Translations under genes and position numbers: made by a program
Part shown: piece after piece, positions 12,169 to 62,616 of the stretch
Layout: each line of letters begins with the position of its first letter
How positions within the stretch are numbered: position 1 is the first letter of the stretch
From: Bacilli bacterium
GTDB taxonomy: Bacteria; Bacillota_I; Bacilli_A; RF39; UBA660
Reading direction: 5' to 3'
Assembly (NCBI GenBank): GCA_017548925.1
Contig: JAFYYX010000001.1
Location: 30,829-94,828 of the forward strand
DNA: 64,000 nucleotides
Notes under the pieces: model-generated
What the model saw: the letters and a program-made list of their open reading frames with translations, nothing else
Database searches by the model: none
Told to the model about the DNA's origin: nothing

Positions 12169-13344
12169 TTATCTAAATAGTTCCTTCCATGAAATTATAA
12201 TACACTCTGGAGCATATTTTTGCAAACCGTTTTGAGTTCCTTTAGATAATATCTTTTTTAAATCATCATCTTTTAAATATTTTATAATGCTATTAGCCAT
12301 CGCTTCTTTATCCCTGTTAGATATTAAAATACCATTATCATTATTTATAAGTTGGCAAGCACCATTTGCAGAATCAAATGCAATAGCAGGTACCCCAAAA
12401 GAAAACGCCTCAAGTAAAACTATACCAAAAGATTCAGTAAAACTAGTCATAACATAAAGCGCTGAATTAGATAAATATTCATAAACATCATTAGAAGGTC
12501 TATAACCAAGTAAATGTATATTTTCTCCTAATCCTTTTTCATTAACATAATTAAGAACATCATTAAATAAAGGTCCATCACCAATTAAGTTAAGATGAAT
12601 ATCATCTATTTTTTCTTTTACTAAACCTATTACATCTATTAAATCAAAAATTCCTTTTTCTTTACTAAGTCTAGATACAGTAATTAAGTTGTTATTATTT
12701 AATTTAGAAAGTTTTGGATTATTAATGGAAATCATATTTGGTATATAAACGCATTTACAACTAGTATTAGATAAAACTTTATTATAATCATTATATAAAT
12801 CATTAGAAACTAATACAAAATAATTAAGATTCTTTACTGAATTACATATTTTATTAAAATATTTTTTATTATTATTGTGATGATTATGTTCCCAACCAAT
12901 TCCAATTTGAGAATCCTTTTTAGAGCTACCTACAACTTTATTAATAAAATCTCTTGTTGATATAAAAATATCATCATTTGAATTTTTAATATAATTTCTA
13001 ACGAGTTTTCTTTTATTAATTACATTTATTACACTTAATACAGTATCTTTTGCCAAACGAAAAATATTAAAGTGATAATCTTTAAATAATTGTTTAAATA
13101 ACGTTATAAATTTTAAACTTTTAATACTTCTTTTATATTTATCAGTTTTTAACGCAATATTTCCACTCATTAGATATTTAATATTAACGTTAGAATTTAC
13201 TTCAAAAGGTACTTCATCATAAAGTTTATAGATTGAAAGTATTTTAACATCATAGCTAGAAGATAGTTCATTAGCAAGATTTATAACTGCTTTTTCTATT
13301 CCCCCATAACCTAAATGAAGTGCAATTATTGTAATTTTTTTCAT
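12169..13344 (-). CDS. Glycosyltransferase family 4 (GT-B, Glycos_transf_1)
   Basis: N-terminal GYGGIE motif and a C-terminal E...E motif region (EAFSFGVPAIAFD). 391 aa. Confidence 0.8.
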   Translation of the reverse strand: MKKITIIALHLGYGGIEKAVINLANELSSSYDVKILSIYKLYDEVPFEVNSNVNIKYLMSGNIALKTDKYKRSIKSLKFITLFKQLFKDYHFNIFRLAKDTVLSVINVINKRKLVRNYIKNSNDDIFISTRDFINKVVGSSKKDSQIGIGWEHNHHNNNKKYFNKICNSVKNLNYFVLVSNDLYNDYNKVLSNTSCKCVYIPNMISINNPKLSKLNNNNLITVSRLSKEKGIFDLIDVIGLVKEKIDDIHLNLIGDGPLFNDVLNYVNEKGLGENIHLLGYRPSNDVYEYLSNSALYVMTSFTESFGIVLLEAFSFGVPAIAFDSANGACQLINNDNGILISNRDKEAMANSIIKYLKDDDLKKILSKGTQNGLQKYAPECIIISWKELFR

Positions 13345-13350
13345 ATAAAT

Positions 13351-14397
13351 CTATCCTATAAATTTTTCGAATTTTTTTAATATATGTTGATTTTCTTCCC
13401 AAAAATTATTTACGCCATTATAAACAACTTTTTTAAGTAAAATATTGTTTATATCATTTGCAATTTTATTAGGATCTGGAGAAATAATATAAACATTATT
13501 ACCTTGATCATCTGGATTTGTACTAAATATTGGTTTTTCAAGAACACGTGCTTCAATTAAAGCAGTTGATGTATCATAATTATCTGAAGTATTTAGATAA
13601 TAATCAGCTAATTTCATATAAGGATATGGGTTATTCTTAAAACCAAATAATTTAATATAATTATCAAGATTTGATTGCTTAACAAGCATTTTAATATTAA
13701 CCAAATCAGGCCCATCACCTAAAATCCATAGTTCAACATGGTTATTAATCTTGATTAAGTTTTGCATCATTTTAATCATTAAAGTAAAGTTTTTAGATCT
13801 ATCATTTAATGTACCTACAGAAACAAATAATGTTTTATGATTTGGTTTTTCAACACTAATTCCTGTTTTTGACATATCAATTATGTGTTTATCATCAATT
13901 AGATACTCTAAAACTTCGCATTGATCTGCGTATAGCTCATGTAATTTAATAAATTCACTTTTAATTCTTTCGTTAGGAAATAAAAACATATTAAATTTTA
14001 AAATATTATGAGCTCTAACAAAACCATAATAAGTTGAATCTACAACGTATATACCTCTATAGTTTTTATGTAGATATATTGCATTTCTCTTGGATGATGA
14101 AATAACAAATTCTGATAATTTAACATCACCAACATCATACATCAAACTAAAATCATATCTTTTATGATATTTAAATTTGAATAGAAAATTTATTTTGGAT
14201 GTATCAAATGGAGAATCGATTATATTAACACTAGATGGAATTTGATTAAGCATATTTGTTTGTGATTTAATAAAGATTAAATCTACACTAATATTTGTAT
14301 AATCAATTCTATTTAGTAAATTAACTAAACTTATACCTATACTATTTGCAAAAAACTCATTAATACATATTAATATTTTCTTTTTCATTTTATTCAA
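13351..14397 (-). CDS. Putative glycosyltransferase (GT-B-like)
   Basis: 348 aa. N-terminus KILICINEF and C-terminal half resemble retaining GT-B enzymes. It sits in an operon with GT4 and the Alg13/14 genes. Confidence 0.45.
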   Translation of the reverse strand: MNKMKKKILICINEFFANSIGISLVNLLNRIDYTNISVDLIFIKSQTNMLNQIPSSVNIIDSPFDTSKINFLFKFKYHKRYDFSLMYDVGDVKLSEFVISSSKRNAIYLHKNYRGIYVVDSTYYGFVRAHNILKFNMFLFPNERIKSEFIKLHELYADQCEVLEYLIDDKHIIDMSKTGISVEKPNHKTLFVSVGTLNDRSKNFTLMIKMMQNLIKINNHVELWILGDGPDLVNIKMLVKQSNLDNYIKLFGFKNNPYPYMKLADYYLNTSDNYDTSTALIEARVLEKPIFSTNPDDQGNNVYIISPDPNKIANDINNILLKKVVYNGVNNFWEENQHILKKFEKFIG

Positions 14398-14944
14398 CCT
14401 TCTTTTTAATTCTACAATATTTATCTGACATATTTAATACTTTATCCCTAAATGTATCAGTATCTATGTCAAAAATGTTTTTGATTTCTAAATATTCTTT
14501 TCTTAAATGAATACCAACTAATACTAAACCAAGTGATGCAACTAATACTGCTTTCAAAGCATTATCATCAAACTGTGCATGAGCAATTGAATATCCAAGT
14601 CCAATAGAACCAACAATACCTACAAAAGACATTATATTTTTAAACATATATTCTTTATGATATTCTAGCATTTTATCAAGATCTTTATCAAGTTTTTGAT
14701 ATAAATCCTTATCATTTATTTCTACCAGTTTTAACACAGTCGCATACTTTAATTTATTTAATTCTTTTCGTTCAGAACTAACATCATCATATACTTCATG
14801 ATATTCTTCTTGAAACTTTCCTTGATCTAACTTGAAATAAGTAGCTTCAATTCTACTACCTGGATAATATTTTATTTTTGATAAAAATACTCCTGTAGCA
14901 GACTTATCGTTAAAAAGAGAAAGATCGAAATCAAAATCATCCAT
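14390..14944 (-). CDS. Hypothetical protein with C-terminal TM segments
   Basis: 184 aa. Overlaps neighbouring genes by a few nt, consistent with an operon. Confidence 0.4.
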   Translation of the reverse strand: MDDFDFDLSLFNDKSATGVFLSKIKYYPGSRIEATYFKLDQGKFQEEYHEVYDDVSSERKELNKLKYATVLKLVEINDKDLYQKLDKDLDKMLEYHKEYMFKNIMSFVGIVGSIGLGYSIAHAQFDDNALKAVLVASLGLVLVGIHLRKEYLEIKNIFDIDTDTFRDKVLNMSDKYCRIKKKVE

Positions 14945-14955
14945 AACAAAACCTC

Positions 14956-15438
14956 CTAGCCAATAAAATCCGTAATAATATCAAGTATTTTTTTATTATC
15001 AAATTTTGGAAATTTTGGCTTAAACTTATGTAATTCTGTATATTCTCTTACAAAATCATCATAATCAACAATTTTTTTAATATAACCCAATTTATAAAAT
15101 TTATCTACAATTTGTAGTTGATGATCATTTATATGTTCTTTATATTCAGCTAATCTAGCAATTGCAAAAACTTTTTTCTTATTAAGAAGAGCAGTTGTTA
15201 AAATACCTACCCCACCATGAGTTACAATTAAATCCGCATTTGAGATGCACTCATTCATTTTTTTATCTGACATAAATTTATAAGTTTTAATAAAATTACT
15301 TTTAAATTTAGTATGACCTATTTGAGCAATTACTTCTTCTTTTACTATGCCTCTTCTAATAGCATTATCAACAATTTTCAATAATCTTAAAAATTGTTTA
15401 TCTTGTGTACCAACAGTTAAAAAAATCATATTATCCAT
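14956..15438 (-). CDS. Alg13-like glycosyltransferase catalytic subunit (Glyco_tran_28_C, EpsF/Cps14G-like)
   Basis: MIFLTVGTQ...THGGVGIL matches the Alg13/MurG C-terminal domain. 160 aa. Confidence 0.7.
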   Translation of the reverse strand: MDNMIFLTVGTQDKQFLRLLKIVDNAIRRGIVKEEVIAQIGHTKFKSNFIKTYKFMSDKKMNECISNADLIVTHGGVGILTTALLNKKKVFAIARLAEYKEHINDHQLQIVDKFYKLGYIKKIVDYDDFVREYTELHKFKPKFPKFDNKKILDIITDFIG

Positions 15439-24698: not shown

Positions 24699-24737
24699 AT
24701 AAATTATAACAAAAAAATATTTCCTAAGATATATTTC

Positions 24738-25232
24738 TTAGGAAATACTTAATAAATTATTTAAATAAATACATAAAAATTTTATTAGTTTTGTATATTT
24801 ATTAATATCACTTACATCAAATAAAACTATAAATCCAGCAGCATTATTATCAAAAGAATATATAAATAAATATAAGTCTTTATTCTGAACAATATTATTA
24901 CTGATTTTAATACATTCTTCTTTACTATTTAAAAAACTAATTAACTTATTATTCATGAAAGTATCAATTAAACTTTTATTACTTGAATATAAAACTTTTT
25001 CTCTATCCGTTATTATATATTCTCCATCTATTACTGAACTTAGTGTTCTATCAATATCTTCAAGAACTTTAATATTTTGTTTTGAGGTTGATTTTTTTTG
25101 CAATAAAATAACATCATTATTAATTGTAAATTCTATATTTTCTCCTTCATTAATATTTAGATATTTTCTTATTTCAACAGGTATTACAACCCTACCTAAT
25201 TCATCAATTCTTCTTATTATACCTTTAGTATT
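24738..25232 (-). CDS. spoVT: Stage V sporulation transcription regulator SpoVT (AbrB-N swapped-hairpin domain plus GAF-like C-terminus)
   Basis: KGIIRRIDELGRVVIPVEIRKYLNINEGENIEF is AbrB/SpoVT-like. A C-terminal part of about 110 aa follows. Probable TTG start at 25232 preceded by GGGAGTGG. The ORF-track N-terminal 56 aa are likely spurious. Synteny mfd-spoVT. Confidence 0.7.
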   Translation of the reverse strand, partial: NTKGIIRRIDELGRVVIPVEIRKYLNINEGENIEFTINNDVILLQKKSTSKQNIKVLEDIDRTLSSVIDGEYIITDREKVLYSSNKSLIDTFMNNKLISFLNSKEECIKISNNIVQNKDLYLFIYSFDNNAAGFIVLFDVSDINKYTKLIKFLCIYLNNLLSIS

Positions 25233-25827: not shown

Positions 25828-28800
25828 TTATATTATCTTTTCAAGAAGTGGTACTAAGTAATATAAGAAATGTTTATCATCTTTTTTAATAAAAAACATA
25901 ATTGTTATACAATCATTAGCATACTTAAACTTAAAGTTTGGACTAATTTGCATAGCTTCAATGAATAATAAATCTCCTTTTATTTCCTGGGAAATATTTT
26001 TTGGAAGTGTAATTTCTACCATTCTTTCATTTTGAACTACTCTTGTTATACCGCAAGATTTAGCCATACTATCGAACCATTCTTCATACATATAAATTTC
26101 AAGAGACTCTGGTAATTTACCAAATCTATTTTCAAGTTCTGATTTAACATCATTAAAGGTTTCACTTGAAACAACTTGATTAATAAGTTGATGAATTTCA
26201 ATTTTAATATCTTCATCACTAACATAATCATCACTAATATGAGTCTCAACTTCAACTAAACTATTTGTATCATTAGTTTCTTCTAAAATATCTTCATCAT
26301 TGCCAGACAAACTCTCAGAAATTAGTTTAGTATATAAACTAATACCTATAGAATCTATAAATCCAGCTTGCTCACTACCTATAATATCTCCAGCACCCCT
26401 AATAGATAAATCTTTCATAGCTACTTTATATCCACTACCAAGTTCAGTATATTCTTTAATTGCCTCTAATCTTTTAGATGCAGTTTCAGTTAATATTTTA
26501 CCTGGCCTATATAGTAAATAGGTATATGCTATTTTATTACTTCTACCAACTCTACCTCTAAGTTGATATAACTGACTTAATCCAAATTTATCAGAATCAT
26601 AAACAATTAATGTGTTTGCATTTGATATATCAATACCCGTTTCGATAATAGTAGTACATATTAAAATATCGTATTTATAGTCATAAAAATCATTCATTAT
26701 ATCTTCTAGATCAGTCTTACTCATTTGTCCATGTGCTACACATATTCTTGCATCTGGCGCTAACTTCTTAATTTGATTAGCTTTATTTAATATATGTTCT
26801 ACTGAATTATATAAAATAAATACCTGACCATCTCTGGATAACTCTTTATAAATAGCATCTTTAACTAATAAGTCATTTTCTTCAATTACATATGTTTGAA
26901 TAGGATATCTATCAACAGGTGGTGTATCAATAATAGACATATCTCTTACGCCAGATAAAGCCATTTTCATAGTTCTTGGTATTGGAGTTGCAGATAAAGT
27001 TAAAACATTAACATTAGTTTTTACCTCTTTTATCTTTTCTTTGTGTGCAACACCAAAACGTTGTTCCTCATCTATAATTAATAAACCTAATTTTTTAAAC
27101 TCTATTTCATCATTTAATAATCTATGAGTACCAAAAACCATATCTATTTTTCCTGATTTTAGTCCCTCAACAATATTTTTATATTCTTTTTGTGTAGTAA
27201 ATCTATTAACTAATGCTATTTCTACTGGGTAGTTTTTGAATCTTTCAACAGCACATAAATATTGTTGGTGAGATAAAATTGTTGTTGGACATAAGTACAT
27301 TACTTGATGATTATTAAACACAGTTTTAAACATAGCTCTAAATGCAACTTCAGTTTTACCAAAACCAACATCACCACATAAAAGTCTATCCATTGGTTTT
27401 CTACTTCTTAAATCATCATTAATATCCGATATTGCTCTTACTTGATCTTTTGTAAGTTCATAAATAAATTCAGATGCAAATACATCTTCTTCAGGAACAT
27501 CTACAAAAGCATCACTTAATACATTAGATCTTTCTTTATATAATTTTATTAATTTTTCAGAAATATCATTAATTTTCTTTTTAATTGCAGCTTTAGTTTT
27601 AGCCCAAGTAGTAGAATTTAATTTATTAAGTTTAGGCGGAGTTCCATCTGCATCACCATATTTATATAAGTTATTAATTTTTTCAACTGGTACATATATT
27701 TTATCGTTACCAGCAAAATCAAGTTGTATATAATCTTTGGAAATACCATTTTTAGTAAGATTAATCATACCAACATACTGACAAATACCATAGGTAACAT
27801 GAACTACATAATCTCCTTTTTCTAATTGATCAGAAGATTTTATTTTTTTACCAAAATGATAACTATTTTTAAATTTTATTTTATTATCAACAGTTCCTTC
27901 TAAATCATTAGAAGTAAATACTGCAAGATTATTAACTATAAAACCTTTATTAACTTCAATAGGAAGTACTTTAATTCTATTACTAAGTTCAGAAGCTATT
28001 TTTTCTTTTAATTCTTTATTTTTAGTACAAAAATATACTTTTTTGTTAGAAAGCAATAACTTATCAACATCATCTTTAAATAAATCAAAATTTCCTTTAT
28101 AATTACTAGCTTCTTTTGAATTTAGATCAATATCATCGGTTGAATAATTAAGTTTATTTAAATAATTAAATTTTTTTATTTGAATATCATCAAAGTTGAA
28201 CATTATTTTTTGATATTCTTCATCTTTTCTTTCAAAGTACTCAACTATATCACTTACTAATTTTTTGTAAGCAGCATCAATTTGGGGTTTATCAATGTAA
28301 TAAACCCAATCAGGGTTTATATAATCAACTAAAGAACTATGTTCTTTATCATTAATCTCAGTAAATGGTGTGATTTTTAATGTTGATAACTTATTAGTAG
28401 TCATCTGTGTATCATAATCAAATTCTTTAATACTTTCTACTTCATCATCAAAGAACTCAATTCTAACTGGATAATTACTTCCCATTACGAAAATATCAAC
28501 AACAAAACCTCTTACAGCAAACTCACCAGTTGAAGTAACAAGTGAATCTCGTTTATAACCTAAATCATTAAGTTTTTTAACAAGTTCATCTCTAGATATT
28601 TTAGAACCTATCTTAATATCAATTATACTTTCTGAGTAAGTATGTTGCTGCGGTAAATATCTTAAATAACCCATCAAATTAGTAATAATAATATGATGTT
28701 TATAATTACTATTTAAAACATCTAATCTTGATGCCTTAAACTCAGGAGAAACAGCAATAGCAACAGATGTAATAAAATCATCCATTGGAAACATAGCTAC

Positions 28801-29534: not shown

Positions 29535-30248
29535 TCACTCCTTTCGAAATATATTTTTGAATGTTTTTCTATCCTGTATTGAAATAATAGGTCTTATTTT
29601 TATTCCAGGATTAGAACCTTTTACACATTTTACTAATACTAAAGTTGGTTCCTTACCATCTTTAGTAGATACTAACTGAATATTTTTTACATTAATATTA
29701 TATTTAAAACAACAGTTAATAATCTCATCTAATCTTTCAGGTCTATGAACTAAATATAATTCACCATCTTTTTGTAAAATATTTGAAGATATTTGAATTA
29801 TTTCATCTAAACTAATCAATAACTCATGTCTTGCAATAGCTTTTACTTTATCATCATTAATATATGATGTACTATCCTTCTTAAAATATGGTGGATTACA
29901 TACTATTACATCAATATTATTTCCTGGGAAATAATTTTTCACATCTTTAACATCAGAAAGAACGAGATTTATTTTATCACTTAATTTATTATATTCAATA
30001 GATTCTTTGCCTAATTCATATATTTCTTTTTGCACCTCAACGGCAGTGATCTTTGCATTTGTTTTGGTTGATAAGATCATTGACACAGCACAATTACCAG
30101 AACATAATTCTATAATGTTTTTAGTTCTATTTGTAAGATTAACATATTCGGCTAATAGTACCGAATCTAATGAAAATTTAAAATATTTATCATCTTGATA
30201 TATTTTTAAAGGTACATAATCATATAGATCATTTAACATTTTAGTCAT
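29535..30248 (-). CDS. tRNA (adenine37-N6)-methyltransferase-like SAM-dependent MTase (YabB/TrmN6-like)
   Basis: NPPY motif (VCNPPYFKK), a SAM-binding motif (IELCSGNCAVS) and synteny next to yaaT. Confidence 0.65.
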   Translation of the reverse strand: MTKMLNDLYDYVPLKIYQDDKYFKFSLDSVLLAEYVNLTNRTKNIIELCSGNCAVSMILSTKTNAKITAVEVQKEIYELGKESIEYNKLSDKINLVLSDVKDVKNYFPGNNIDVIVCNPPYFKKDSTSYINDDKVKAIARHELLISLDEIIQISSNILQKDGELYLVHRPERLDEIINCCFKYNINVKNIQLVSTKDGKEPTLVLVKCVKGSNPGIKIRPIISIQDRKTFKNIFRKE

Positions 30249-32936: not shown

Positions 32937-34544
32937 TTATTCCTCCACTACTATATTATTTTCACCAAATATGTTATTTGCTAAATCTTCGATTTCACTC
33001 TTTTTTTCTTCAAGTTTTGGTTCTTCAATATATTCATACTTAATTTTTTTATTAGTTTTGTCTTTATAATCACTTACTAATTCGTTCCATTTATTCTTGT
33101 CAACGAATACTATTTTTTTATCTAGTGATAAATCAGCTATAATTTTTGATTCTTTTTCATTTAATAATTTAGCTGAAGCATCAGAATCACAAACAAATAA
33201 AATATTTGTTGCAGATACTACACCTACTTCAGTATCAATAAATAAAGAATATATATCAGAATCATTCTTTAATTTTTCAATTAGTTCAGAAAGATTTTTT
33301 TCTAAATCACTTTTCATTTTCTTATTTGCATTAGCAAATGAGTTATTAATTCTAATATTAATAATATCTAAGTTGTTGTTTACACTAGGTAAATTATTTG
33401 TTTCTTTTACTTCATTATTTATTTCCTGGGAAATATTTTTTTCTTCTTTTTCAACAATAATTTCAGTTTTATCATTATTATCAAGTTTCTTTTCATCCAA
33501 AATATTATTACTATCAGAAACATCGTTAATGACATTATCACAGGCCAAATTAGATACTATTATCATCTTTATTACATCATAATAATTAAAATTAACTTTA
33601 AAGTTATCAATTTTTATTGTTTCAAATACTATATTTTTAAGATTAGGTACTTTAGAACTGTCATTAATAGAACATATTTTGTTTGTTAAGACACTAATGA
33701 ATTTACTTACAAAAGATTTTTCATTAAATCCAAATTCTTTCAATGAATCAAAAATTTTTTTAATATTAGCAACATCATTATTGATAATTGATTCAACTAA
33801 GTTAACAATTACTGATTCTGAAACAATTCCAAATTGTTCATTTAATAAATCAGCATTAATAGGTTTATTTAGTGTAATTAATTGATCAAGGATACTTAAA
33901 GCATCTCTTAACCCACCATCAGATAAATCAGCTATTTCTTTAACAACATCATCATCTAATTCCATTTTTTCTTGCTGAAGAACATAATTTATTCTATCTA
34001 CTAAAGCTTTTTTAGAAATTTTGCTAAAAGCAAATTGTTGGCATCTTGATAAAATTGTTTGTGGAAGACTCTCTGGATTAGTTGTAGCTAAAATGAATAT
34101 TGCATGACTAGGAGGTTCTTCCAATGTTAATAAAAATGCATTTGCAGCACTTGGAGTAAGCATATGAACTTCATCAATAATGTATATTTTATATTTAGAA
34201 CCAGCTGGTGCTAATTTTACATTATTTACTATTTCTCTAATATCCTCCACTTTATTATTAGAAGCTGCGTCTAATTCAATAATATCTGGATTTTTATCAA
34301 AATTTAAACAAGAATCACATTTTCCACATGGTTCTCCATCTTTTGGATTTACACAATTAATTGCTTTGGCAAATACTTTTGCTGTAGATGTTTTACCAGT
34401 TCCTTTTGGACCAGAAAAGATATATGCATGTGAAATTTTATTGTTAATAATTGATTCCTTTAATGTATCAGTTATAAATTTTTGATCTACAATGTCATTA
34501 AAGTTGGATGGTCGATATTTTCTGTATAAAACCTTATAACTCAT
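32937..34544 (-). CDS. dnaX: DNA polymerase III subunits gamma/tau
   Basis: YRKYRP..F.D..GQ, GPKGTGKTS Walker A and a CxxC zinc module (CGKCDSC). Confidence 0.9.
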   Translation of the reverse strand: MSYKVLYRKYRPSNFNDIVDQKFITDTLKESIINNKISHAYIFSGPKGTGKTSTAKVFAKAINCVNPKDGEPCGKCDSCLNFDKNPDIIELDAASNNKVEDIREIVNNVKLAPAGSKYKIYIIDEVHMLTPSAANAFLLTLEEPPSHAIFILATTNPESLPQTILSRCQQFAFSKISKKALVDRINYVLQQEKMELDDDVVKEIADLSDGGLRDALSILDQLITLNKPINADLLNEQFGIVSESVIVNLVESIINNDVANIKKIFDSLKEFGFNEKSFVSKFISVLTNKICSINDSSKVPNLKNIVFETIKIDNFKVNFNYYDVIKMIIVSNLACDNVINDVSDSNNILDEKKLDNNDKTEIIVEKEEKNISQEINNEVKETNNLPSVNNNLDIINIRINNSFANANKKMKSDLEKNLSELIEKLKNDSDIYSLFIDTEVGVVSATNILFVCDSDASAKLLNEKESKIIADLSLDKKIVFVDKNKWNELVSDYKDKTNKKIKYEYIEEPKLEEKKSEIEDLANNIFGENNIVVEE

Positions 34545-35136: not shown

Positions 35137-35152
35137 TGTTCCACGTGGAACT
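35137..35152. promoter_or_regulatory. parS: parS site 1 (TGTTCCACGTGGAACT, 15/16 palindromic)
   Basis: Matches the Firmicute parS consensus TGTTNCACGTGAAACA in both half-sites. About 9 kb from oriC. Confidence 0.7.
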
Positions 35153-35179
35153 ATAAATATAATTATTTAAAATTATTAA

Positions 35180-35195
35180 TGTTCCACGTGGAACA
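35180..35195. promoter_or_regulatory. parS: parS site 2 (TGTTCCACGTGGAACA, perfect 16-bp palindrome)
   Basis: Perfect palindrome matching parS half-site TGTTCCAC twice. 43 bp from site 1, between the gyrA terminator and the ffs promoter. Confidence 0.75.
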
Positions 35196-40928: not shown

Positions 40929-41375
40929 TTATATTTTACGGTACCTAATAATGCTTTCTAATCTTGATGATCTTAGTATTTGATTATTAATTGTTTCATA
41001 TGAACAATTTAAATATATTTTATTATTATCTATAAACTCAATTTCTACCTTATTTTCAGGCATTTTTCTATAACTTTTAATATATTTATTTCTAATCCAT
41101 GAACATTCATTTAATCTACTAGATGTTGTAGGAAAAAAGATAATTTCATTACTTTCTTCTATAATTATTGGAACTTTGTGAGTAATTCCAGTTAATTTGT
41201 TAGTACCTTTTACTCTTCCATCATAACTAGAACCAAAATATTCACAACTATACTTAATAATTTTATTAGGTAATACATTATCTAATATAAACTTGTTATT
41301 TTTTTCATATACAATAGTTTTGTTACTATCATATATTAATGCAATTGTATTATTATTAATTTCATAATTTAACAT
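40929..41375 (-). CDS. comK: ComK-family protein (competence transcription factor homolog), short form
   Basis: CEYFGSSYDGRVKGT and THKVPIIIEESNEIIFFPTTSSRLNECSWI parallel B. subtilis ComK CRFFGSSYAGRKAGT and SHKPPIMVDPSNQIFLFPTLSSTRPQCGWI. 148 aa. Lacks the ComK C-terminal region of about 40 aa. Confidence 0.7.
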   Translation of the reverse strand: MLNYEINNNTIALIYDSNKTIVYEKNNKFILDNVLPNKIIKYSCEYFGSSYDGRVKGTNKLTGITHKVPIIIEESNEIIFFPTTSSRLNECSWIRNKYIKSYRKMPENKVEIEFIDNNKIYLNCSYETINNQILRSSRLESIIRYRKI

Positions 41376-45833: not shown

Positions 45834-46442
45834 ATGAAATGTAGTTCATTTACAGCAAAGACATTAGAAGAAGCTTTAGAAGAAGCAAATACAAGTTTAA
45901 ATTTAACTGATGAAGATTTTGTTTATAGTTATGAAGAAACAAAAGGTAAATTATTTAAAGCTGGAAGCTTTAATGTTAGTGTTTATACATTAACTGATAT
46001 TTGTTCTTATCTTAAAGATTATTTAAAAAAATTAACTTCTGATATGGGAATAGAAGTTAACTTTGAATCTAAGATAAGAGAAAAAACAATAGAAATTAAA
46101 ATGATTTCAGATAATAACCCCATACTTATTGGTAGAAATGGACAAACATTAAAAGCACTAGAGTGCATTTTAATGCAAGTTGTAAGTAAAGAAACATCTA
46201 AACATGTTAGAGTAGCACTAGATGTTGAAGGTTATAAAGAAAAACAAATTAAACGTCTTGAAAGATTAGCTATTAATCTTGCAAAAGATTGTGTTAGAAC
46301 TAAAACTGATGTTCATATGGAAGCAATGAATGCATATGAAAGAAGAATAGTTCATAACAAACTTACTGATTTTAAAGGTGTTAAAACTGAAAGTATTGGC
46401 GAAGAACCAAATCGTCATTTAGTAATAAAATACGTTAAATAA
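45834..46442 (+). CDS. jag: Jag/KhpB RNA-binding protein (KH plus R3H)
   Basis: Synteny yidC-jag. C-terminal R3H-like HNKLTDFKGVKTESIGEEPNRHLVI. Confidence 0.8.
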   Translation: MKCSSFTAKTLEEALEEANTSLNLTDEDFVYSYEETKGKLFKAGSFNVSVYTLTDICSYLKDYLKKLTSDMGIEVNFESKIREKTIEIKMISDNNPILIGRNGQTLKALECILMQVVSKETSKHVRVALDVEGYKEKQIKRLERLAINLAKDCVRTKTDVHMEAMNAYERRIVHNKLTDFKGVKTESIGEEPNRHLVIKYVK

Positions 46443-46486
46443 GATATTTCCCAGGAAATATCTTTTTATGTTAGAAAGGTGATTTT

Positions 46487-47865: not shown

Positions 47866-49740
47866 ATGGGTTATGAGATTATTGTCGTAGGTGGTGGTCA
47901 CGCTGGTTGTGAAGCTGCTTATGCTTGCGCAAAAAAAGGACATAAGACATTATTAGTAACTGGAAACATAAAGAACATCGCAGATATGCCTTGTAACCCA
48001 CATATTGGTGGTAGTGCAAAGGGTATCGTAGTAAGAGAAATAGATGCTCTTGGTGGTATCATGGGTAAAATTGCTGATAAAACACATCTTCAAATAAAGA
48101 TGCTTAATAGTGCAAAGGGTCCAGCAGTTCAATCTTTAAGAGCACAAGGAGATAAGATAACTTATCCAAAAGAAATGCTTAATACTCTTAATTCTTTAGA
48201 AAATTTAGAGATTAGAGAAGCAATGGTAGAAGATTTAATTGTTGAAGATGGTGTTGTTAAAGGAATTATATTAGAAGATGGAGAAAAAATAGATTCTAAC
48301 ATAGTTATTTTAACAACTGGTACTTATTTAAAAGCTGATATATTAGTAGGATCTACTAGAACAAGACAAGGTCCTCATGGAGAAAAACCATCCCTTCATT
48401 TAAGTGATAAATTAAGAGAATATGGTTTTACTATTAAAAGACTTAAAACAGGAACTCCTCAAAGAATTGATAGAAGTTCTATAGATTTTTCAAAAACTAA
48501 ACCAGAACTAGGTGATGATAAGTTATTAACATTTAGTTTTGATTTAGAACCACAATATAAAATAGAAGATCAAGAGCCATGCTATTTAACATATACAACT
48601 CCAGAAACACACAAGATAATTATGGATAACTTAAATAAATCTTCAATGTATGGTGCCCTTGATGATATTGAAGGAATAGGTCCAAGATACTGTCCTTCAA
48701 TTGAAGATAAAGTTGTAAGATTTTCTGATAAAGAAAGACATCAACTATTTATTGAACCTGAAAGTAGATACTATGATGACATGTACTTACAAGGATTCTC
48801 AACATCAATGCCACCAGAAGTACAAGAACAAATGGTACATAGCTTACCTGGTTTTGAGCATGCAAAAATATTAAAGTATGGATATGCAATCGAATATGAT
48901 GCAATTTATCCAACACAACTACATGCATCACTTGAAACTAAAGTCCTTGAAAATCTATTTACTGCTGGTCAAATAAATGGAACAAGTGGTTATGAAGAAG
49001 CTGCTTGTCAAGGATTAATGGCTGGTATTAATGCATCGCTTAAACTAGAAGGTAAAGAGCCACTAGTTCTTAAAAGAAACGAAGCATATATTGGTGTACT
49101 TATTGATGACTTAATAACAAAAGGTATTAGAGATCCATATAGATTATTAACATCTAGAGCAGAATTTAGATTACTTTTAAGAAGTGATAATGCAGACCAA
49201 AGATTAAGAAAACATGGATATGAAGTTGGATTAATTGATGATGAGCAAATGTCTAGATTAAATAAGAAACTAGATGATATTGATAAATGTATGGAGTTCT
49301 TAAAGGAAAATAAACTTAAGATAACAAGTGATGTCGAAGCAGTATTTAATGAAAACATTATTCCTGTTCCACAAACGACTTTATCTTTCGAACAATTATT
49401 AAGAAGACCAGAAGTAACAATCGAATTTATTGAAAACTTTGTCGAAATTCCATTTACTGAAGATATAAAAGAACAAGTTTATATTAACTTAAAATATGAA
49501 GGATATATTAAAAAAGCATATAAAGAAGCAGAAAAAATGTTAAAACTTGAAGAAAAACAAATCCCTGAAGATATCGATTATGATAAAGTAAAAAATATTG
49601 CTAGTGAAGCAAGACAAAAGTTAAAAGAGGTAAGACCTACAACAATTGCTCAAGCAATAAGAATAAGTGGAGTAAATCCAGCTGATATTTCGATATTATC
49701 AGTATATTTAAAGAAGGAATATGCTAATGACAATAGATAA
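47866..49740 (+). CDS. mnmG: tRNA uridine 5-carboxymethylaminomethyl modification enzyme MnmG
   Basis: FAD-binding VVGGGHAGCEA. Start set to the ATG at 47866, which has SD AAGGTGA. The ORF-track start has none. Confidence 0.95.
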   Translation: MGYEIIVVGGGHAGCEAAYACAKKGHKTLLVTGNIKNIADMPCNPHIGGSAKGIVVREIDALGGIMGKIADKTHLQIKMLNSAKGPAVQSLRAQGDKITYPKEMLNTLNSLENLEIREAMVEDLIVEDGVVKGIILEDGEKIDSNIVILTTGTYLKADILVGSTRTRQGPHGEKPSLHLSDKLREYGFTIKRLKTGTPQRIDRSSIDFSKTKPELGDDKLLTFSFDLEPQYKIEDQEPCYLTYTTPETHKIIMDNLNKSSMYGALDDIEGIGPRYCPSIEDKVVRFSDKERHQLFIEPESRYYDDMYLQGFSTSMPPEVQEQMVHSLPGFEHAKILKYGYAIEYDAIYPTQLHASLETKVLENLFTAGQINGTSGYEEAACQGLMAGINASLKLEGKEPLVLKRNEAYIGVLIDDLITKGIRDPYRLLTSRAEFRLLLRSDNADQRLRKHGYEVGLIDDEQMSRLNKKLDDIDKCMEFLKENKLKITSDVEAVFNENIIPVPQTTLSFEQLLRRPEVTIEFIENFVEIPFTEDIKEQVYINLKYEGYIKKAYKEAEKMLKLEEKQIPEDIDYDKVKNIASEARQKLKEVRPTTIAQAIRISGVNPADISILSVYLKKEYANDNR

Positions 49741-50440
49741 GTTTATTGAAGAATTAAAAAAAATAAATATTGTATTAACAGATGATCAGTTAGAAAAATT
49801 TAAAAAATATGCTGATTTTCTTCTTGAGTATAATAAAACTACTAATCTTACTGCAATTAGAGATATAGAAGGAGTATATTTAAAACATTTCTATGATTCT
49901 TTATTGGTTTTTGATAATGATATTGTTGATTATTCTAAAGTAAATAGTTTAATTGATATTGGAACAGGAGCTGGATTTCCAGGAGTTGTAATAAAATTAA
50001 TGCAGCCTCATATTAATGTTACATTACTTGATTCAAATAACAAAAAAACAACATTTTTAAAAGAACTTGTTAAAGTTCTTGAATTAGAAAATGTAACAAT
50101 TGTTAATGATAGAGCAGAAAATTTTGTTAAAGAAAATAGACAAAAATTTGATATATCAATAGCTCGTGCTGTTTCAGAATTAAGAGTAATTTCTGAATTA
50201 TGCTTACCACTTACTAAAGTAGATGGATATTTTATAGCATTGAAAGGAAATTATGTTGATGAAATTAAACTTGCATCCCTTGCAATAAATAAACTTAATT
50301 CAGAGATTGTATCAATACAAGAAAGACAATTACCTGTTGAAAAATCATATAGATCAATAATATATATAAAAAATAATAGAAAAATTGATGATATGTATCC
50401 TAGAAGATACGAACAAATTGTTAAAAAAGCATTGAAATAA
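49721..50440 (+). CDS. rsmG: 16S rRNA (guanine527-N7)-methyltransferase
   Basis: DIGTGAGFPG SAM motif. Synteny mnmG-rsmG. Confidence 0.9.
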   Translation: MLMTIDKFIEELKKINIVLTDDQLEKFKKYADFLLEYNKTTNLTAIRDIEGVYLKHFYDSLLVFDNDIVDYSKVNSLIDIGTGAGFPGVVIKLMQPHINVTLLDSNNKKTTFLKELVKVLELENVTIVNDRAENFVKENRQKFDISIARAVSELRVISELCLPLTKVDGYFIALKGNYVDEIKLASLAINKLNSEIVSIQERQLPVEKSYRSIIYIKNNRKIDDMYPRRYEQIVKKALK

Positions 50441-50497: not shown

Positions 50498-51922
50498 ATG
50501 GATGAAACTAAAGAAGTACGTCAAATTCCGATTGAGGATATAATTCCCAATCGTTTTCAACCACGCATAAATTTTGATGAAAAAGCATTAAATGAACTTG
50601 CTGAATCAATAAAACAACATGGAATAATTCAACCACTTGTTTTAAGACCTTTGGGTGATAAATTTGAAATTATAGCTGGCGAAAGAAGATTTAAAGCAGC
50701 TACATTAGCTGGATTATCAACTGTACCAGGTATTGTAACTGAAATGGATGATAATACTAGTGCAGAAGTTGCACTAATTGAAAATGTTCAAAGAAAAGAT
50801 CTAAGTGCTATTGAAGAAGCTAAATCATATAAAAATATGCTTGAAAGAAGTAATATAACTCAAGAAGAACTAGCTAAAAAAATGGGGTTATCTCAATCAA
50901 CTATAGCTAATAAGTTAAGACTTTTGAATTTATGTGATGAAGTTCAAAATGCGCTTTCACAAGAAAAGATTTCAGAAAGACATGCAAGAGCACTTCTTGC
51001 AATATCTGATAAAGATGAACAAATTAAATGGTTAAATAGAATTATCAATGAAAGACTAACTGTTAGACAATTAGATTTAGCTATTAAAGATGAACAAAAA
51101 GAAGAAACAGAATTCGAAGAAGATATTCCAAAAGTAAATATTAATCCTGATATTGATAGTATTATAAATAATGCTAGTGATATTAATGCTAACGTTAAAC
51201 CTGTTGAAAACAATGCAACTAATGATGTTTTAACTGATAATGTTGCACCAACTGAAATAAAACCGGGCAAATTCTTTAATTATTTAGAAGATGAAGAAGT
51301 TAATATGAATGTTTCTACTGAACCTGAAGAAGAAAAACAACCTGTTAATGATGGAATGTTTAATTTTACTCCAGAATTTGCTGAAGCATCAGATAATCAA
51401 CCTGAACAACCAACTGAAGAAATTGATTCTCTTGATTTTGAACCAACTCAATCAGTTCAACCTGATGAACCAATATATAATGAAGAAACTATTACAAATG
51501 ATATAAATAATCAAGTTGTTAATGAACAAGTTACTCCTGATATACCTCAAGATGATCAAGTTGATGTGGTTAATAATTCTCAAGAAACTTCTGTTTCAAA
51601 TGAAGAACCAGAGTTTATATTTGATGATGAAGATGATGATGAAGGAACTACTTCAGCTAAACCTGTAACTGATGATGTAAAAGTTGAACCTATTCCAGTA
51701 ATGGAAGGTGAAGGAATAACTGATCCAGTTTCATATTATGATACACTTGATCCAAATTTTATGGACAAAGTAAAAGAATTTATTGGTCTAGATTTAAAAA
51801 ATGCTATTAGTTCTTATCGTAACGTAACAAATGACTTAATAGCTTCTGGATTTAATGTAACAATTGATGAAACAGATTTAGAAGATAAATATAAAATAGA
51901 AATTAATATTAATAAAGATTAA
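50498..51922 (+). CDS. noc: ParB-family protein of Noc type (ParB N-domain plus HTH) with a roughly 270-aa acidic low-complexity C-terminal tail
   Basis: IPNRFQPR, GERRFKAA, and HTH GLSQSTIANKLRLLNL plus ISERHARAL closely parallel B. subtilis Noc (GKGQSTIANKLRLLKL, ITERHARAL). The tail is rich in D/E/P/T/N/V and ends in a short, probably folded segment. Confidence 0.75.
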   Translation: MDETKEVRQIPIEDIIPNRFQPRINFDEKALNELAESIKQHGIIQPLVLRPLGDKFEIIAGERRFKAATLAGLSTVPGIVTEMDDNTSAEVALIENVQRKDLSAIEEAKSYKNMLERSNITQEELAKKMGLSQSTIANKLRLLNLCDEVQNALSQEKISERHARALLAISDKDEQIKWLNRIINERLTVRQLDLAIKDEQKEETEFEEDIPKVNINPDIDSIINNASDINANVKPVENNATNDVLTDNVAPTEIKPGKFFNYLEDEEVNMNVSTEPEEEKQPVNDGMFNFTPEFAEASDNQPEQPTEEIDSLDFEPTQSVQPDEPIYNEETITNDINNQVVNEQVTPDIPQDDQVDVVNNSQETSVSNEEPEFIFDDEDDDEGTTSAKPVTDDVKVEPIPVMEGEGITDPVSYYDTLDPNFMDKVKEFIGLDLKNAISSYRNVTNDLIASGFNVTIDETDLEDKYKIEININKD

Positions 51923-53948: not shown

Positions 53949-54308
53949 GTGATATTATTGAAATTACTACACTATATTAATGGTAATTTATCCGATACAA
54001 CTTCTAAAATAGATATTGAAGAAGAAAAAAATTTAAAAAAATATAAATTTTTTCTTGATAATATTATAAATTACATATATATTACTGATAGACTAGTTTT
54101 TATAAGAGAAAGCGACGATTATATTTTCGAGTTAAATATCTCTGATAATGTTAGTTGTAAATTATATTTAAAATCAGAAAATAAGGAATTTAAAATAGAT
54201 GTAAAAAAGTCTATTTATTCACAAAATGATAAATATATAGATTTTAGTTACATTTTAGAAACAAATGATGAAGAAGAACATCATATTATTTTAAAGATTG
54301 GTGATTAA
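53949..54308 (+). CDS. Hypothetical protein
   Basis: 119-aa ORF with a non-ATG start (GTG or TTG), immediately upstream of argS. Confidence 0.3.
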   Translation: MILLKLLHYINGNLSDTTSKIDIEEEKNLKKYKFFLDNIINYIYITDRLVFIRESDDYIFELNISDNVSCKLYLKSENKEFKIDVKKSIYSQNDKYIDFSYILETNDEEEHHIILKIGD

Positions 54309-55981: not shown

Positions 55982-56416
55982 ATGAAATTAAAAGATATAT
56001 CAAAAGAAGACCTTGAAATGATGGGTTATGCAGAACTTGCAGAAATCGTACTTAATGAATCAAAAAAGAAAATGAAAATAGCTGATATTTTCAAAAAAAT
56101 ATGCAAAGCATTAGGTTTAACTGATGCAGAATACGAAGATAGAATATCAGAATTTTTTGAAATAGTATCAACTAATAAATTATTTACAATTTTACCACAA
56201 GGTTATTGTGATTTAAAAACAAGACATAATACTAAAGTTATTATTGATGATGATGAAGAAGAAATTGTTGTTGATGAAGAAATAGAAGATGAAGAACCAG
56301 AAGAAGATGAAGAAAATGAAGACATCTTCTATGATGATACTGAAGACGATGATCTTCCTGATGATGATCTACAAGATTTTGTTGTAGTTGATGAAGACGA
56401 GGAAGTAAACTCTTAG
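55982..56416 (+). CDS. rpoE: DNA-directed RNA polymerase delta subunit
   Basis: N-terminal HARE-HTH-like domain followed by a long D/E-rich tail. 144 aa. Confidence 0.8.
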   Translation: MKLKDISKEDLEMMGYAELAEIVLNESKKKMKIADIFKKICKALGLTDAEYEDRISEFFEIVSTNKLFTILPQGYCDLKTRHNTKVIIDDDEEEIVVDEEIEDEEPEEDEENEDIFYDDTEDDDLPDDDLQDFVVVDEDEEVNS

Positions 56417-61526: not shown

Positions 61527-61555
61527 TTGACAAATTTGTGTAAATATGGTAATAT
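61527..61555 (+). promoter_or_regulatory. Strong sigma-A-type promoter (TTGACA-17-TGgTAATAT) driving the downstream noncoding region
   Basis: Perfect -35. 17-nt spacer. Extended -10 TGnTAATAT. Confidence 0.6.
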
Positions 61556-61561
61556 TTAATA

Positions 61562-62084
61562 CATACATGTGGAGCACTATTCTAGTCGCATATGTTGTTT
61601 GAAGGTAGGGCTAAAAATCTACCAATCGCGAAAAGACACTTTGTATATTAGCTTCATCCGCCCAGGTTGGGGTGATATATAATTTTAAGCCTAAGGAAAG
61701 TTATAATGGCATATAACCTATAGTCCTTTTGCTACGTCCGTTAATTAAAAATCGTGTGTCGTGAGTGATTATGTGGGATAAACATATAAGAGTACTGCTA
61801 TTGATCAAGCTTTCATCTGTTTTGAAAACATAGTTGCAAAAGCGAATAAGAACAGCCTCTATAGCGTCAGGGAAAACCTCTAGAGTGTATATATTGTAGG
61901 TATTAAAGTATGGACTAAGTGGCAATCGAGTATTGTGGACGGTATTAATAGTTGCAATAGATTCATTAAGGAGAAATCGCCTAAGGGTAACCTATGGTTG
62001 AATCTAGAGAAATTCAACTCGACCTAAGCCATAAAATTGATTTACAATATACCATTTATGTATATTTTTAATTAAAGAACTTTA
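61562..62084 (+). ncRNA. Candidate large structured noncoding RNA (about 520 nt), possibly OLE-like
   Basis: No ORF longer than 60 aa on either strand. GC is about 38-43% versus about 26% for the window. It is promoter-driven and has multiple local hairpins (e.g. GGUAG..CUACC at 61604-61623, GUUGAAU..AUUCAAC at 62006-62027, UUAGCUU..AAGCCUAA at 61648-61694). CCUAAG is repeated three times. It runs directly into a 4-TM protein gene. Confidence 0.45.
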
Positions 62085-62100: not shown

Positions 62101-62616
62101 TTGAAAAATCTTAACTGGCCTATTAAAGTTTTTTTTATTACTTTTTTCTTAGCAGCAATATTTAGTGGAGCAACTTCTTTAGTAGCTAATCTAAATGTTA
62201 TTGCATTAAGTATCATATTAATATTTGTAATATTTATAGGTATTATTTTTGATATGGTTGGTGTTGCTGCTTTAACAAGTAAAAAAGAAAACTTTCATGC
62301 AATGGCATCTAAAAAAATTAAAGGATCAAAAGAAGCCATTAATCTACTTAAAAATCCGAATATGGTAGCTACTGTATGTAATGATGTAGTAGGAGATATA
62401 TGTGGTATTGTAAGTGGTGGATTTGGTGCTTTACTTGCAATTGCTATTGCTGAAGGTATAGATATATCAGTTGTTGTTTCAACAATTATAGTTACAGCAA
62501 TTATTTCATCTCTTACTGTAGGCGGAAAAGCAATAGGAAAAACTATTGCTATAAAAAAAGCTGACAGTATTATTTATACTGCCGCAAAATTAAAGAAAAT
62601 GTTAAGTATTAAATAA
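62101..62616 (+). CDS. Small 4-TM membrane protein with DxxxD motif (OapA-like candidate)
   Basis: 171 aa. TTG start with SD AGGAGAG. Four predicted TM helices. NDVVGD (D95-x3-D99) lies between TM2 and TM3. A GxxxG-rich TM3 (GIVSGGFGALLAIAIAEG) is present. Confidence 0.5.
   Translation: MKNLNWPIKVFFITFFLAAIFSGATSLVANLNVIALSIILIFVIFIGIIFDMVGVAALTSKKENFHAMASKKIKGSKEAINLLKNPNMVATVCNDVVGDICGIVSGGFGALLAIAIAEGIDISVVVSTIIVTAIISSLTVGGKAIGKTIAIKKADSIIYTAAKLKKMLSIK

Follow-up and report, generated by a model that had tools for sequence, protein, structure and literature searches.

A predicted Noc orthologue with an acidic internal linker and no N-terminal membrane helix in the origin region of an uncultured Bacilli genome

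The DNA considered here is a window of 64,000 nucleotides from contig JAFYYX010000001.1 (Bacilli bacterium, assembly GCA_017548925.1), which represents the replication-origin region of a Firmicute with 25-27% guanine plus cytosine (GC). The sign of the GC skew switches at ~44 kb of the window. The minus strand carries dnaA, dnaN, recF, gyrB, and gyrA to the left of the origin, and the plus strand carries rpmH, rnpA, yidC, jag, mnmE, mnmG, and rsmG to its right. Our subject is the open reading frame (ORF) directly 3' of rsmG, a ParB-family gene that we refer to as noc-like (Table 1). Its ATG start follows the sequence AAAGGGG, and an in-frame extension upstream is impossible. A convergent class-A penicillin-binding protein (PBP) gene sits directly 3' of it. 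This order, with a ParB-family gene after rsmG and then the PBP gene, had been read from the window in an original prediction and is confirmed by ORFs and Pfam matches. A database copy identical to the protein carries the name 'MAG: ParB/RepB/Spo0J family partition protein [Bacilli bacterium]', where MAG stands for metagenome-assembled genome, and is found on contigs of up to 1.04 Mb.

Related loci were collected by a DnaN-seeded scan with one genome per species. This identified 80 related species, all of them uncultured gut or rumen Bacilli, variously labelled as Bacilli, Tenericutes, or Mycoplasma MAGs, 'Coprobacillus sp. CAG:605', or Candidatus Ventrenecus, a name that the NCBI taxonomy leaves unplaced. 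The sets used below are 84 loci (1.47 Mb in all), 39 loci that are full-length, and 52 loci of the clade of the window that reach the noc-like gene.

The choice of DNA target by ParB-type proteins has been analyzed in detail for Spo0J, which reads parS, and for Noc (nucleoid occlusion), which reads the Noc-binding site (NBS). Positions 173, 179, 184, and 201 encode this choice (Jalal et al. 2020; PMC7383237). In that study, A1 of the site is read by Q173 and C6 by R201, and a single lysine at 179 or 184 suffices; deep mutational scanning found R173 always present in parS binders, and dual-specificity variants have mostly T or S at 201. The helix-turn-helix (HTH) sequence of the window protein, GLSQSTIANKLRLLNL ... 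ISERHARAL, has Q133, K139, N144, and R161 at the corresponding positions. The Spo0J signature, R173 with glycine or another small residue at 201, is therefore replaced by Q133 and R161, and the Q..K..R pattern is kept throughout the family. Alignment thus bears out the original proposal that the HTH carries the residues distinguishing Noc from Spo0J (Q, K, and R at 173, 179, and 201). The difference from Noc is at position 184, which is N here and K in Noc. With this combination of Q (173) and R (201), the window protein is not expected to bind parS.

The corresponding target is present in the window. An exact NBS search (ATTTCCCGGGAAAT) gave zero matches, and when one mismatch was allowed it gave four identical 16-bp sites, TATTTCCYRGGAAATA, each a 15/16 match to the B. 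subtilis NBS, for which the chance expectation is below 0.2 even at 2 mismatches. All four keep A1 and C6 in both half-sites, and the only change is in the centre, from CG to TG/CA. The earlier statement that the window holds no NBS-like site is overturned by these copies. Across the 84 related loci, the B. subtilis 16-mer, TATTTCCCGGGAAATA, occurs 86 times without a mismatch and its TG/CA-centre variant 14 times, and 36 of the 39 full-length loci have at least one NBS. The site between jag and mnmE recurs at the same position in 16 of 39 related loci, and the surrounding 24 bp are identical in two of the relatives, L005 (66% protein identity) and L006 (55%). Depletion of CpG in the window genome is strong (observed/expected 0.44; one CGCG vs 17 expected; no CCCGGG) and may explain the TG/CA centre of the window sites, where most relatives have CG. 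With NBS sites present, the target expected for the protein is accounted for, and its specificity appears to be ordinary. The suggestion of an unusual specificity is not upheld, the residues being those of a standard Noc and standard NBS sites occurring in this genome and its relatives.

Several smaller observations concern the sites themselves. The four window sites share one orientation relative to the leading strand. Coding constraint was considered for the three that lie inside genes and was rejected, because mfd, the methyltransferase gene, and dnaX are unrelated and, by the ORF coordinates, the methyltransferase site is read in a frame different from that of the other two. The jag-mnmE site is at the centre of AAGATATTTCCCAGGAAATATCTT, a near-palindrome of 24 bp with a T-run after it (46441-46468), which could double as a jag terminator. 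Two overlapping degenerate NBS-like sequences, TATTTCCTAAGATATA and TATTTCTTAGGAAATA, are found at the 3' end of a SpoVT-like gene (24718-24747).

Table 1. Positions of the noc-like gene, its domains, and associated features in the window (aa, amino acid).
Feature	Position	Strand	Basis or remark
noc-like gene	50498..51922	+	474 aa plus stop; ORF and ribosome-binding site, Pfam ParB_N and HTH_ParB, NCBIfam Noc model, PDB 7NFU
N-terminal CTP-binding domain	50513..50791	+	aa 6-98; Pfam ParB_N, E 1e-33
DNA-binding HTH domain	50795..51097	+	aa 100-200; Pfam HTH_ParB, alignment to Noc 7NFU, superposition on 6Y93
Acidic intrinsically disordered linker	51113..51712	+	aa 206-405; composition, AlphaFold confidence
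Conserved linker motif KPGKFFNYLEDEEVNM	51260..51307	+	aa 255-270; alignment of 31 relatives
Noc-type C-terminal (predicted dimerisation) domain	51713..51919	+	aa 406-474; NCBIfam, family conservation, AlphaFold
rsmG	49721..50440	+	Pfam GidB, synteny in relatives; upstream neighbour marking the canonical noc position
NBS-like site TATTTCCTGGGAAATA	25981..25996	.	inside mfd
NBS-like site TATTTCCTGGGAAATA	29918..29933	.	inside methyltransferase gene
NBS-like site TATTTCCTGGGAAATA	33420..33435	.	inside dnaX
NBS-like site TATTTCCCAGGAAATA (reverse complement of TATTTCCTGGGAAATA)	46445..46460	.	jag-mnmE intergenic region
Two parS sites	35137..35195	.	between gyrA and signal recognition particle RNA; predicted targets of a different ParB (Spo0J)

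The domain layout and overall similarity of the protein also point to Noc, here represented by the proteins of B. subtilis and Geobacillus thermoleovorans (7OL9, 7NFU, 7NG0, and 6Y93). As in Noc, the N-terminal domain is of the ParB type that binds cytidine triphosphate (CTP). It contains the CTP-binding motifs PNRFQPR and GERRFKA, with ENVQRKDL at aa 95-102; the residues of these motifs are invariant in an alignment of 31 relatives, and the predicted local distance difference test (pLDDT) score of the domain is 78-90. The third arginine of GERRxR is a lysine in this protein, and substitution of the equivalent arginine in B. subtilis Noc (R91A) did not abolish foci (Adams et al. 2015). The NCBIfam Noc model (TIGR04285) scores the protein at 289.9 bits vs 181.6 for the generic ParB model, its relatives at 280-287 bits, and a true Spo0J at 231.5. 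When the linker described below was deleted in silico, the Noc model aligned end to end (1-255 of 255) with 303.2 bits. The best sequence match in the PDB is Geobacillus Noc (7NFU), with 204.8 bits vs 177 for B. subtilis Spo0J. Furthermore, a fold search places Noc on top, and the DNA-binding domain superposes on the complex of the Noc DNA-binding domain with NBS (6Y93) at 1.1-1.6 Å.

At the other end of the protein, the last 77 aa alone gave one match among 18,950 NCBIfam models, which was to positions 209-255 of Noc (E 0.0018). This is weak but specific evidence for a C-terminal domain of the Noc type, with dimerisation as its predicted role. AlphaFold models a helix-helix-hairpin domain at 410-472 (pLDDT 70-78), and a block of ~65 aa is conserved here in the 31 homologues, which are 391-572 aa long (GLDLK.AI..YR......GF.I.I.E.D....Y.I.I.I.K). 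The domain is net acidic, unlike that of Noc.

Gene order provides a further comparison. The noc-like gene shares with noc its place directly 3' of rsmG; soj and spo0J are not adjacent, either in the window or in the 52 clade loci. Two distant members of the family (L093 and L095, with proteins of 735 and 525 aa) show the order mnmE-mnmG-rsmG-[long Noc-like]-parA-parB-DUF951-...-ychF, which corresponds to noc-soj-spo0J in B. subtilis. Judged by this order, the long-linker family is orthologous to noc in position and is able to coexist with Soj and Spo0J. The downstream ParB of L093 has 294 aa, starts with METNRRRALGKGLEELF, and has an N-terminal LGKGL peptide; its HTH contains KSRS, giving R at 173, with T at 201. 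Its best match in the PDB is B. subtilis Spo0J, at 201.9 bits vs 160.8 for Noc, a reversal of the ranking obtained with the window protein. The window protein does resemble Spo0J and other chromosomal ParB proteins (for example, B. subtilis 6SDK and the 294-aa protein of L093) in its fold, CTP motifs, and origin-proximal gene, with ~45% identity over the N-terminal and DNA-binding domains. Spo0J differs in having R173 together with a small residue at 201, in reading parS, in its length of ~290 aa with a short linker, and in having both an N-terminal LG[KR]GL peptide for ParA interaction and a gene adjoining parA. The peptide (LG[KR]GL..L) and an adjacent parA are both absent for the window protein.

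Specificity residues, the Noc model, and the PDB and fold matches support the original assignment of the protein to the Noc type. Judged from sequence, the ORF at 50498-51922 probably encodes an NBS-specific Noc orthologue with an internal linker.

The part of the protein that departs from Noc is the part expected to act on the cell. In B. subtilis Noc, aa 1-10 form a membrane-targeting amphipathic helix. The N-terminus here, MDETKEVRQIPIEDII, starts 16 aa ahead of the PNRFQPR box, and the absence of that helix, stated in the original prediction, follows from this start and from the lack of any possible upstream extension; the next helix of Noc is missing as well. The start is likewise ~16 aa before the box in the 31 homologues and in 51 copies taken from genome loci. 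Canonical Noc proteins start with MKHSFSRFFGLGEKEQE (B. subtilis) and MKHPFSRLFSFGEKEQEE (Geobacillus), as verified from 7OL9 and 7NFU. The helix was present in all Noc homologues examined by Adams et al. (2015) and was necessary for function; the K2E and R7E substitutions abolish membrane binding, so that flanking positive charges are needed.

The second departure is the linker. The short, basic stretch that joins the DNA-binding and C-terminal domains of Noc is replaced by ~200 aa with 54 D/E and 7 K/R, a net charge of -47. AlphaFold is confident over aa 4-205, and pLDDT falls below 50 over 232-393. Counted from where the DNA-binding domain ends up to a point 45 aa short of the C terminus, the linker is 103-326 aa long in 39 related species and is always net negative (-0.08 to -0.22 per residue). 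The region had been described as a ~270-aa acidic disordered tail. Its acidity and disorder are evident, and it is not a tail: because the C-terminal ~69 aa are conserved and folded, the acidic region is an internal linker. In the distant members L095 (7379-8956) and L093 (6002-8209), the linkers are N/Q/M-rich (prion-like) in place of acidic.

Within this otherwise unalignable linker, the strongest conserved island is P-N-K-F-F-N-[FY]-L-E-D-E-x-x-N-M, in which K258, F259, F260, N261, L263, E264, and M270 are invariant in the 31 relatives. A [KR]FF motif is found in 38 of 39 species, twice in ten of those, and the strict motif occurs 30 times vs 2.2 expected from shuffled linkers (98 analysable representatives). 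Variants in distant members include KKLFNIFE...SLEDE.VNL, NRFIPSFEEE..NM, and ENQFLPNFDDM, and L095 has four copies of [DN]SFM.FL..YD in its N/Q-rich linker. Two proposals for the function of such islands were set aside. A first motif, DIPxV, is not a mimic of the FtsZ C-terminal peptide, since its D and I are unconserved in the alignment, and the register of the FF peptide does not fit the beta-clamp-binding consensus (QL[SD]LF).

The motif has features in common with the missing helix. Its hydrophobic moment is 0.57 vs 0.50 for the B. subtilis Noc helix; like the canonical helix, it has acidic residues after an F-x-x-F-hydrophobic core; and its invariant F259 and L263 align with F5 and F9 of that helix, two residues whose substitution eliminates membrane binding. 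The motif may be a relocated membrane anchor, a reading that we put forward tentatively. Several points weigh against it. The net charge of the motif is -2 to -3, unlike the positive flanks that canonical Noc needs, and the basic residue is missing in some distant members, such as L093 with ENQFLPNFDDM. In its invariant N and M past the aromatic core, the motif resembles an interface for protein binding more than an anchor in lipid, and AlphaFold confidence for the motif is low.

These same features lend themselves to a reading in which the peptide is a short linear motif for a protein partner and not for lipid, with the protein still an NBS-bound clamp of the Noc type. The partner could be a component of the divisome, the Min system, or SMC, or the protein's own N-terminal domain, and the acidic linker could serve as a flexible tether or platform. 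The negative charge, the variants without a basic residue, and the position of N269 and M270, invariant or near-invariant 8-10 residues past the aromatic core, are in keeping with this, as are the conserved LEDE stretch and further aromatic-acidic islands in the linker (FxFxPEF, EEIExLD, and EFIFDDE). The idea of a protein-interaction platform, raised in the original prediction, is plausible because the linker holds conserved short motifs. Set against this are the likeness of the motif to the canonical membrane helix, in both its F-x-x-F-hydrophobic pattern and its acidic continuation, and the fact that no partner has been identified; the fourfold motif in the N/Q-rich linker of L095 would fit weak, avidity-based binding of either kind. 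We consider a role in partner binding about as likely as one in membrane anchoring, and hold either view tentatively. A possible analogy is SlmA, the nucleoid occlusion factor of E. coli, which is a site-specific DNA-bound blocker of division that acts by direct contact with a division protein. It has an unrelated TetR-family fold, with neither a CTP switch nor a sliding clamp, and the analogy applies if the linker motif binds a divisome component.

The breadth of the family bears on whether the linker matters at all. In an exhaustive HMMER search, 84,728 ParB-family proteins were recovered from 1.84 billion cluster representatives. The 150 with the best scores (50%-identity clusters) reach at least 246 bits, more than the 204.8 bits that canonical Noc attained at best in the PDB search, and are 227-848 aa long with a median of 443. 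All are long-linker forms, and Noc of canonical length is missing among them. Most have the short N-terminus, together with Q..K..R where the pattern is readable, and the distant family members in the cluster look-up are all metagenomic. We found no published description of Noc homologues that lack the N-terminal helix or have long linkers. NCBI annotates the family only generically as ParB/RepB/Spo0J, and the NCBIfam Noc model misses it because of the insertion. The window protein thus looks ordinary in its specificity and unusual in its effector architecture, which is widespread.

Against this background, it is unlikely that the linker is mostly a neutral, lineage-specific, low-complexity spacer in a Noc that has simply lost membrane binding. 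Such drift would account for the variation in length (103-326 aa in close species, and proteins of up to 848 aa family-wide), for a composition that is acidic here and N/Q-rich in L093 and L095, for pLDDT values below 50, and for the lack of conservation in most linker columns. It does not readily accommodate motif islands that stay invariant amid unalignable sequence, a strict motif that is ~14-fold enriched over shuffles, a net negative charge in 39 of 39 species with K/R nearly excluded (7 of 200), or a set of best 150 clusters that are all of the long-linker form.

The reading that we favour is that the protein is the Noc orthologue of an uncultured, low-GC lineage of gut and rumen Bacilli, with a changed effector end. 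Its HTH, through Q133, K139, and R161, would read the NBS sites of this genome. With all of the ParB CTP motifs in the N-terminal domain, the dimer would most likely close as a CTP-dependent sliding clamp and spread from NBS, and the C-terminal ~69 aa would serve for dimerisation as in Noc. In canonical Noc, exposure of the N-terminal helix is reportedly gated by CTP-dependent engagement of the N-terminal domains (Jalal et al. 2021). Our best guess is that the peptide NKFFN[FY]LEDExxNM took over the job of this lost helix. The peptide would then attach NBS-loaded DNA to the membrane or to a division protein associated with it, and the binding would gain its strength from many clamps clustered together. 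The linker that carries the peptide would sit in the part of the clamp that surrounds the DNA.

That this holds across a large Noc clade of uncultured Bacilli, with nucleoid occlusion operating without an N-terminal anchor and through F-hydrophobic-x-F-L amphipathic peptides in a disordered linker of 100-600 aa, is a doubtful generalization at present. If it were true, such a linker, acidic or N/Q-rich, would form the wall of the lumen of the CTP clamp, and the peptide would act as an internal membrane anchor, a divisome-binding peptide, or a sticker for a condensate or polyanionic brush around NBS-loaded DNA. It is possible that membrane tethering is supplied from another region of the protein, in which case the family would show whether the anchor has to be gated by CTP, that nucleoid occlusion can operate without an N-terminal helix, or that the proteins of this family do something else at NBS sites. 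The family also offers natural experiments on the size of linker that a ParB-type clamp tolerates.

The assignment to Noc itself has points against it. The score of the protein does not reach the curated cut-off of the Noc model, 315 bits, either natively or without the linker. On this protein, B. subtilis Noc scores 171.8 bits vs 177 for B. subtilis Spo0J, and overall similarity is by itself no proof of Noc orthology. Together with the absence of the extremely conserved N-terminal motif of Noc, these values would be expected if the family arose by an independent duplication of a ParB gene that converged on Q/K/R and NBS. We consider such an origin improbable, as the family genes of L093 and L095 stand where noc does, with rsmG before them and soj-spo0J after, the C-terminal domain matches the Noc model only, the 16-bp target in relatives is identical to the B. 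subtilis NBS, and Geobacillus Noc is the best match by both sequence and fold.

The remaining question is which protein reads parS in this genome. The parS sites announced in the original prediction were found, a perfect palindrome, TGTTCCACGTGGAACA, at 35180-35195 and a second site at 35137-35152. An array of parS lies just 3' of gyrA in 39 of 39 full-length loci, with 2-11 sites and a mean of 4.5; the window has two. Sites that share the 16-bp scaffold fall into 221 of the parS type, 104 of the NBS type, 2 mixed, and 0 hybrid over 1.53 Mb, and so clean a split is the pattern expected for two separate readers. As a side observation, one related locus (L057, 17286-19016) has 11 parS sites in an ORF-free stretch of 1.7 kb, and an array is also seen in L012 (17744-18746); a tandem-repeat origin of the arrays was rejected.

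Searches by regular expression and BLAST found neither a second ParB nor a ParA in the 64-kb window or in 10 kb past either edge, and no Walker-A ParA was found in the window or its flanks. Neither a second ParB nor a ParA was found near the origin in the 52 clade loci, and a protein search seeded with the Spo0J of L093 recovered the Spo0J of that lineage only, with none assigned to the genome of the window. Soj and Spo0J of this genome were thus not found within the ~104 kb inspected around the origin, which tells against a separate reader. The original prediction had described a sole ParB with no soj/spo0J partners; the lack of adjacent partners stands, and 'sole' holds for those ~104 kb. 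Its suggestion that soj-spo0J have moved elsewhere is favoured indirectly, by the universal parS arrays, the clean site classes, and the gene order in L093 and L095. As parS arrays are kept and the protein is predicted not to read them, a separate, parS-reading Spo0J is very likely encoded elsewhere in the genome, and the absence of soj-spo0J next to the noc-like gene is most likely a change in gene order. That the protein is instead the only ParB of a small genome, serving the parS array as centromere binder as well as NBS, would suit these negative searches and is most improbable, given its Q and R where parS binders invariably have R173 and dual-specificity variants mostly T or S at 201, the two discrete site classes with zero hybrids, the missing ParA-interaction peptide seen in the Spo0J of L093, and relatives of the same architecture that coexist with Soj and Spo0J.

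Other features of the region were noted in passing. An ORF of 148 aa from the ComK family lies on the minus strand between dnaN and recF (40929-41375) and has counterparts in L001 and L005. A plus-strand ORF of 116-119 aa without a Pfam match (53949-54308), which separates the PBP gene from argS, is kept at the same position in all related loci inspected. Just 3' of argS, a plus-strand gene (55982-56416) encodes a protein of 144 aa that matches HARE-HTH weakly and is very acidic in its C-terminal half. From its position and build it is probably the delta subunit of RNA polymerase; it is a second polyanionic tail in the neighbourhood of the noc-like gene. This 26% GC genome of gut or rumen Bacilli also contains an OLE (ornate large extremophilic) RNA of full length (61553-62071, plus strand; 234.7 bits), with a CNNM-like membrane ORF (62101-62616) after it. 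In L091, an agr-like quorum-sensing cluster (12627-15356, ~2-5 kb to the right of the window end) lies near SpoIID and comprises AgrB, a small ORF, a LytTR response regulator, and a histidine kinase. The sporulation genes spoIIR, spoIID, and spoVT cluster near the origin.

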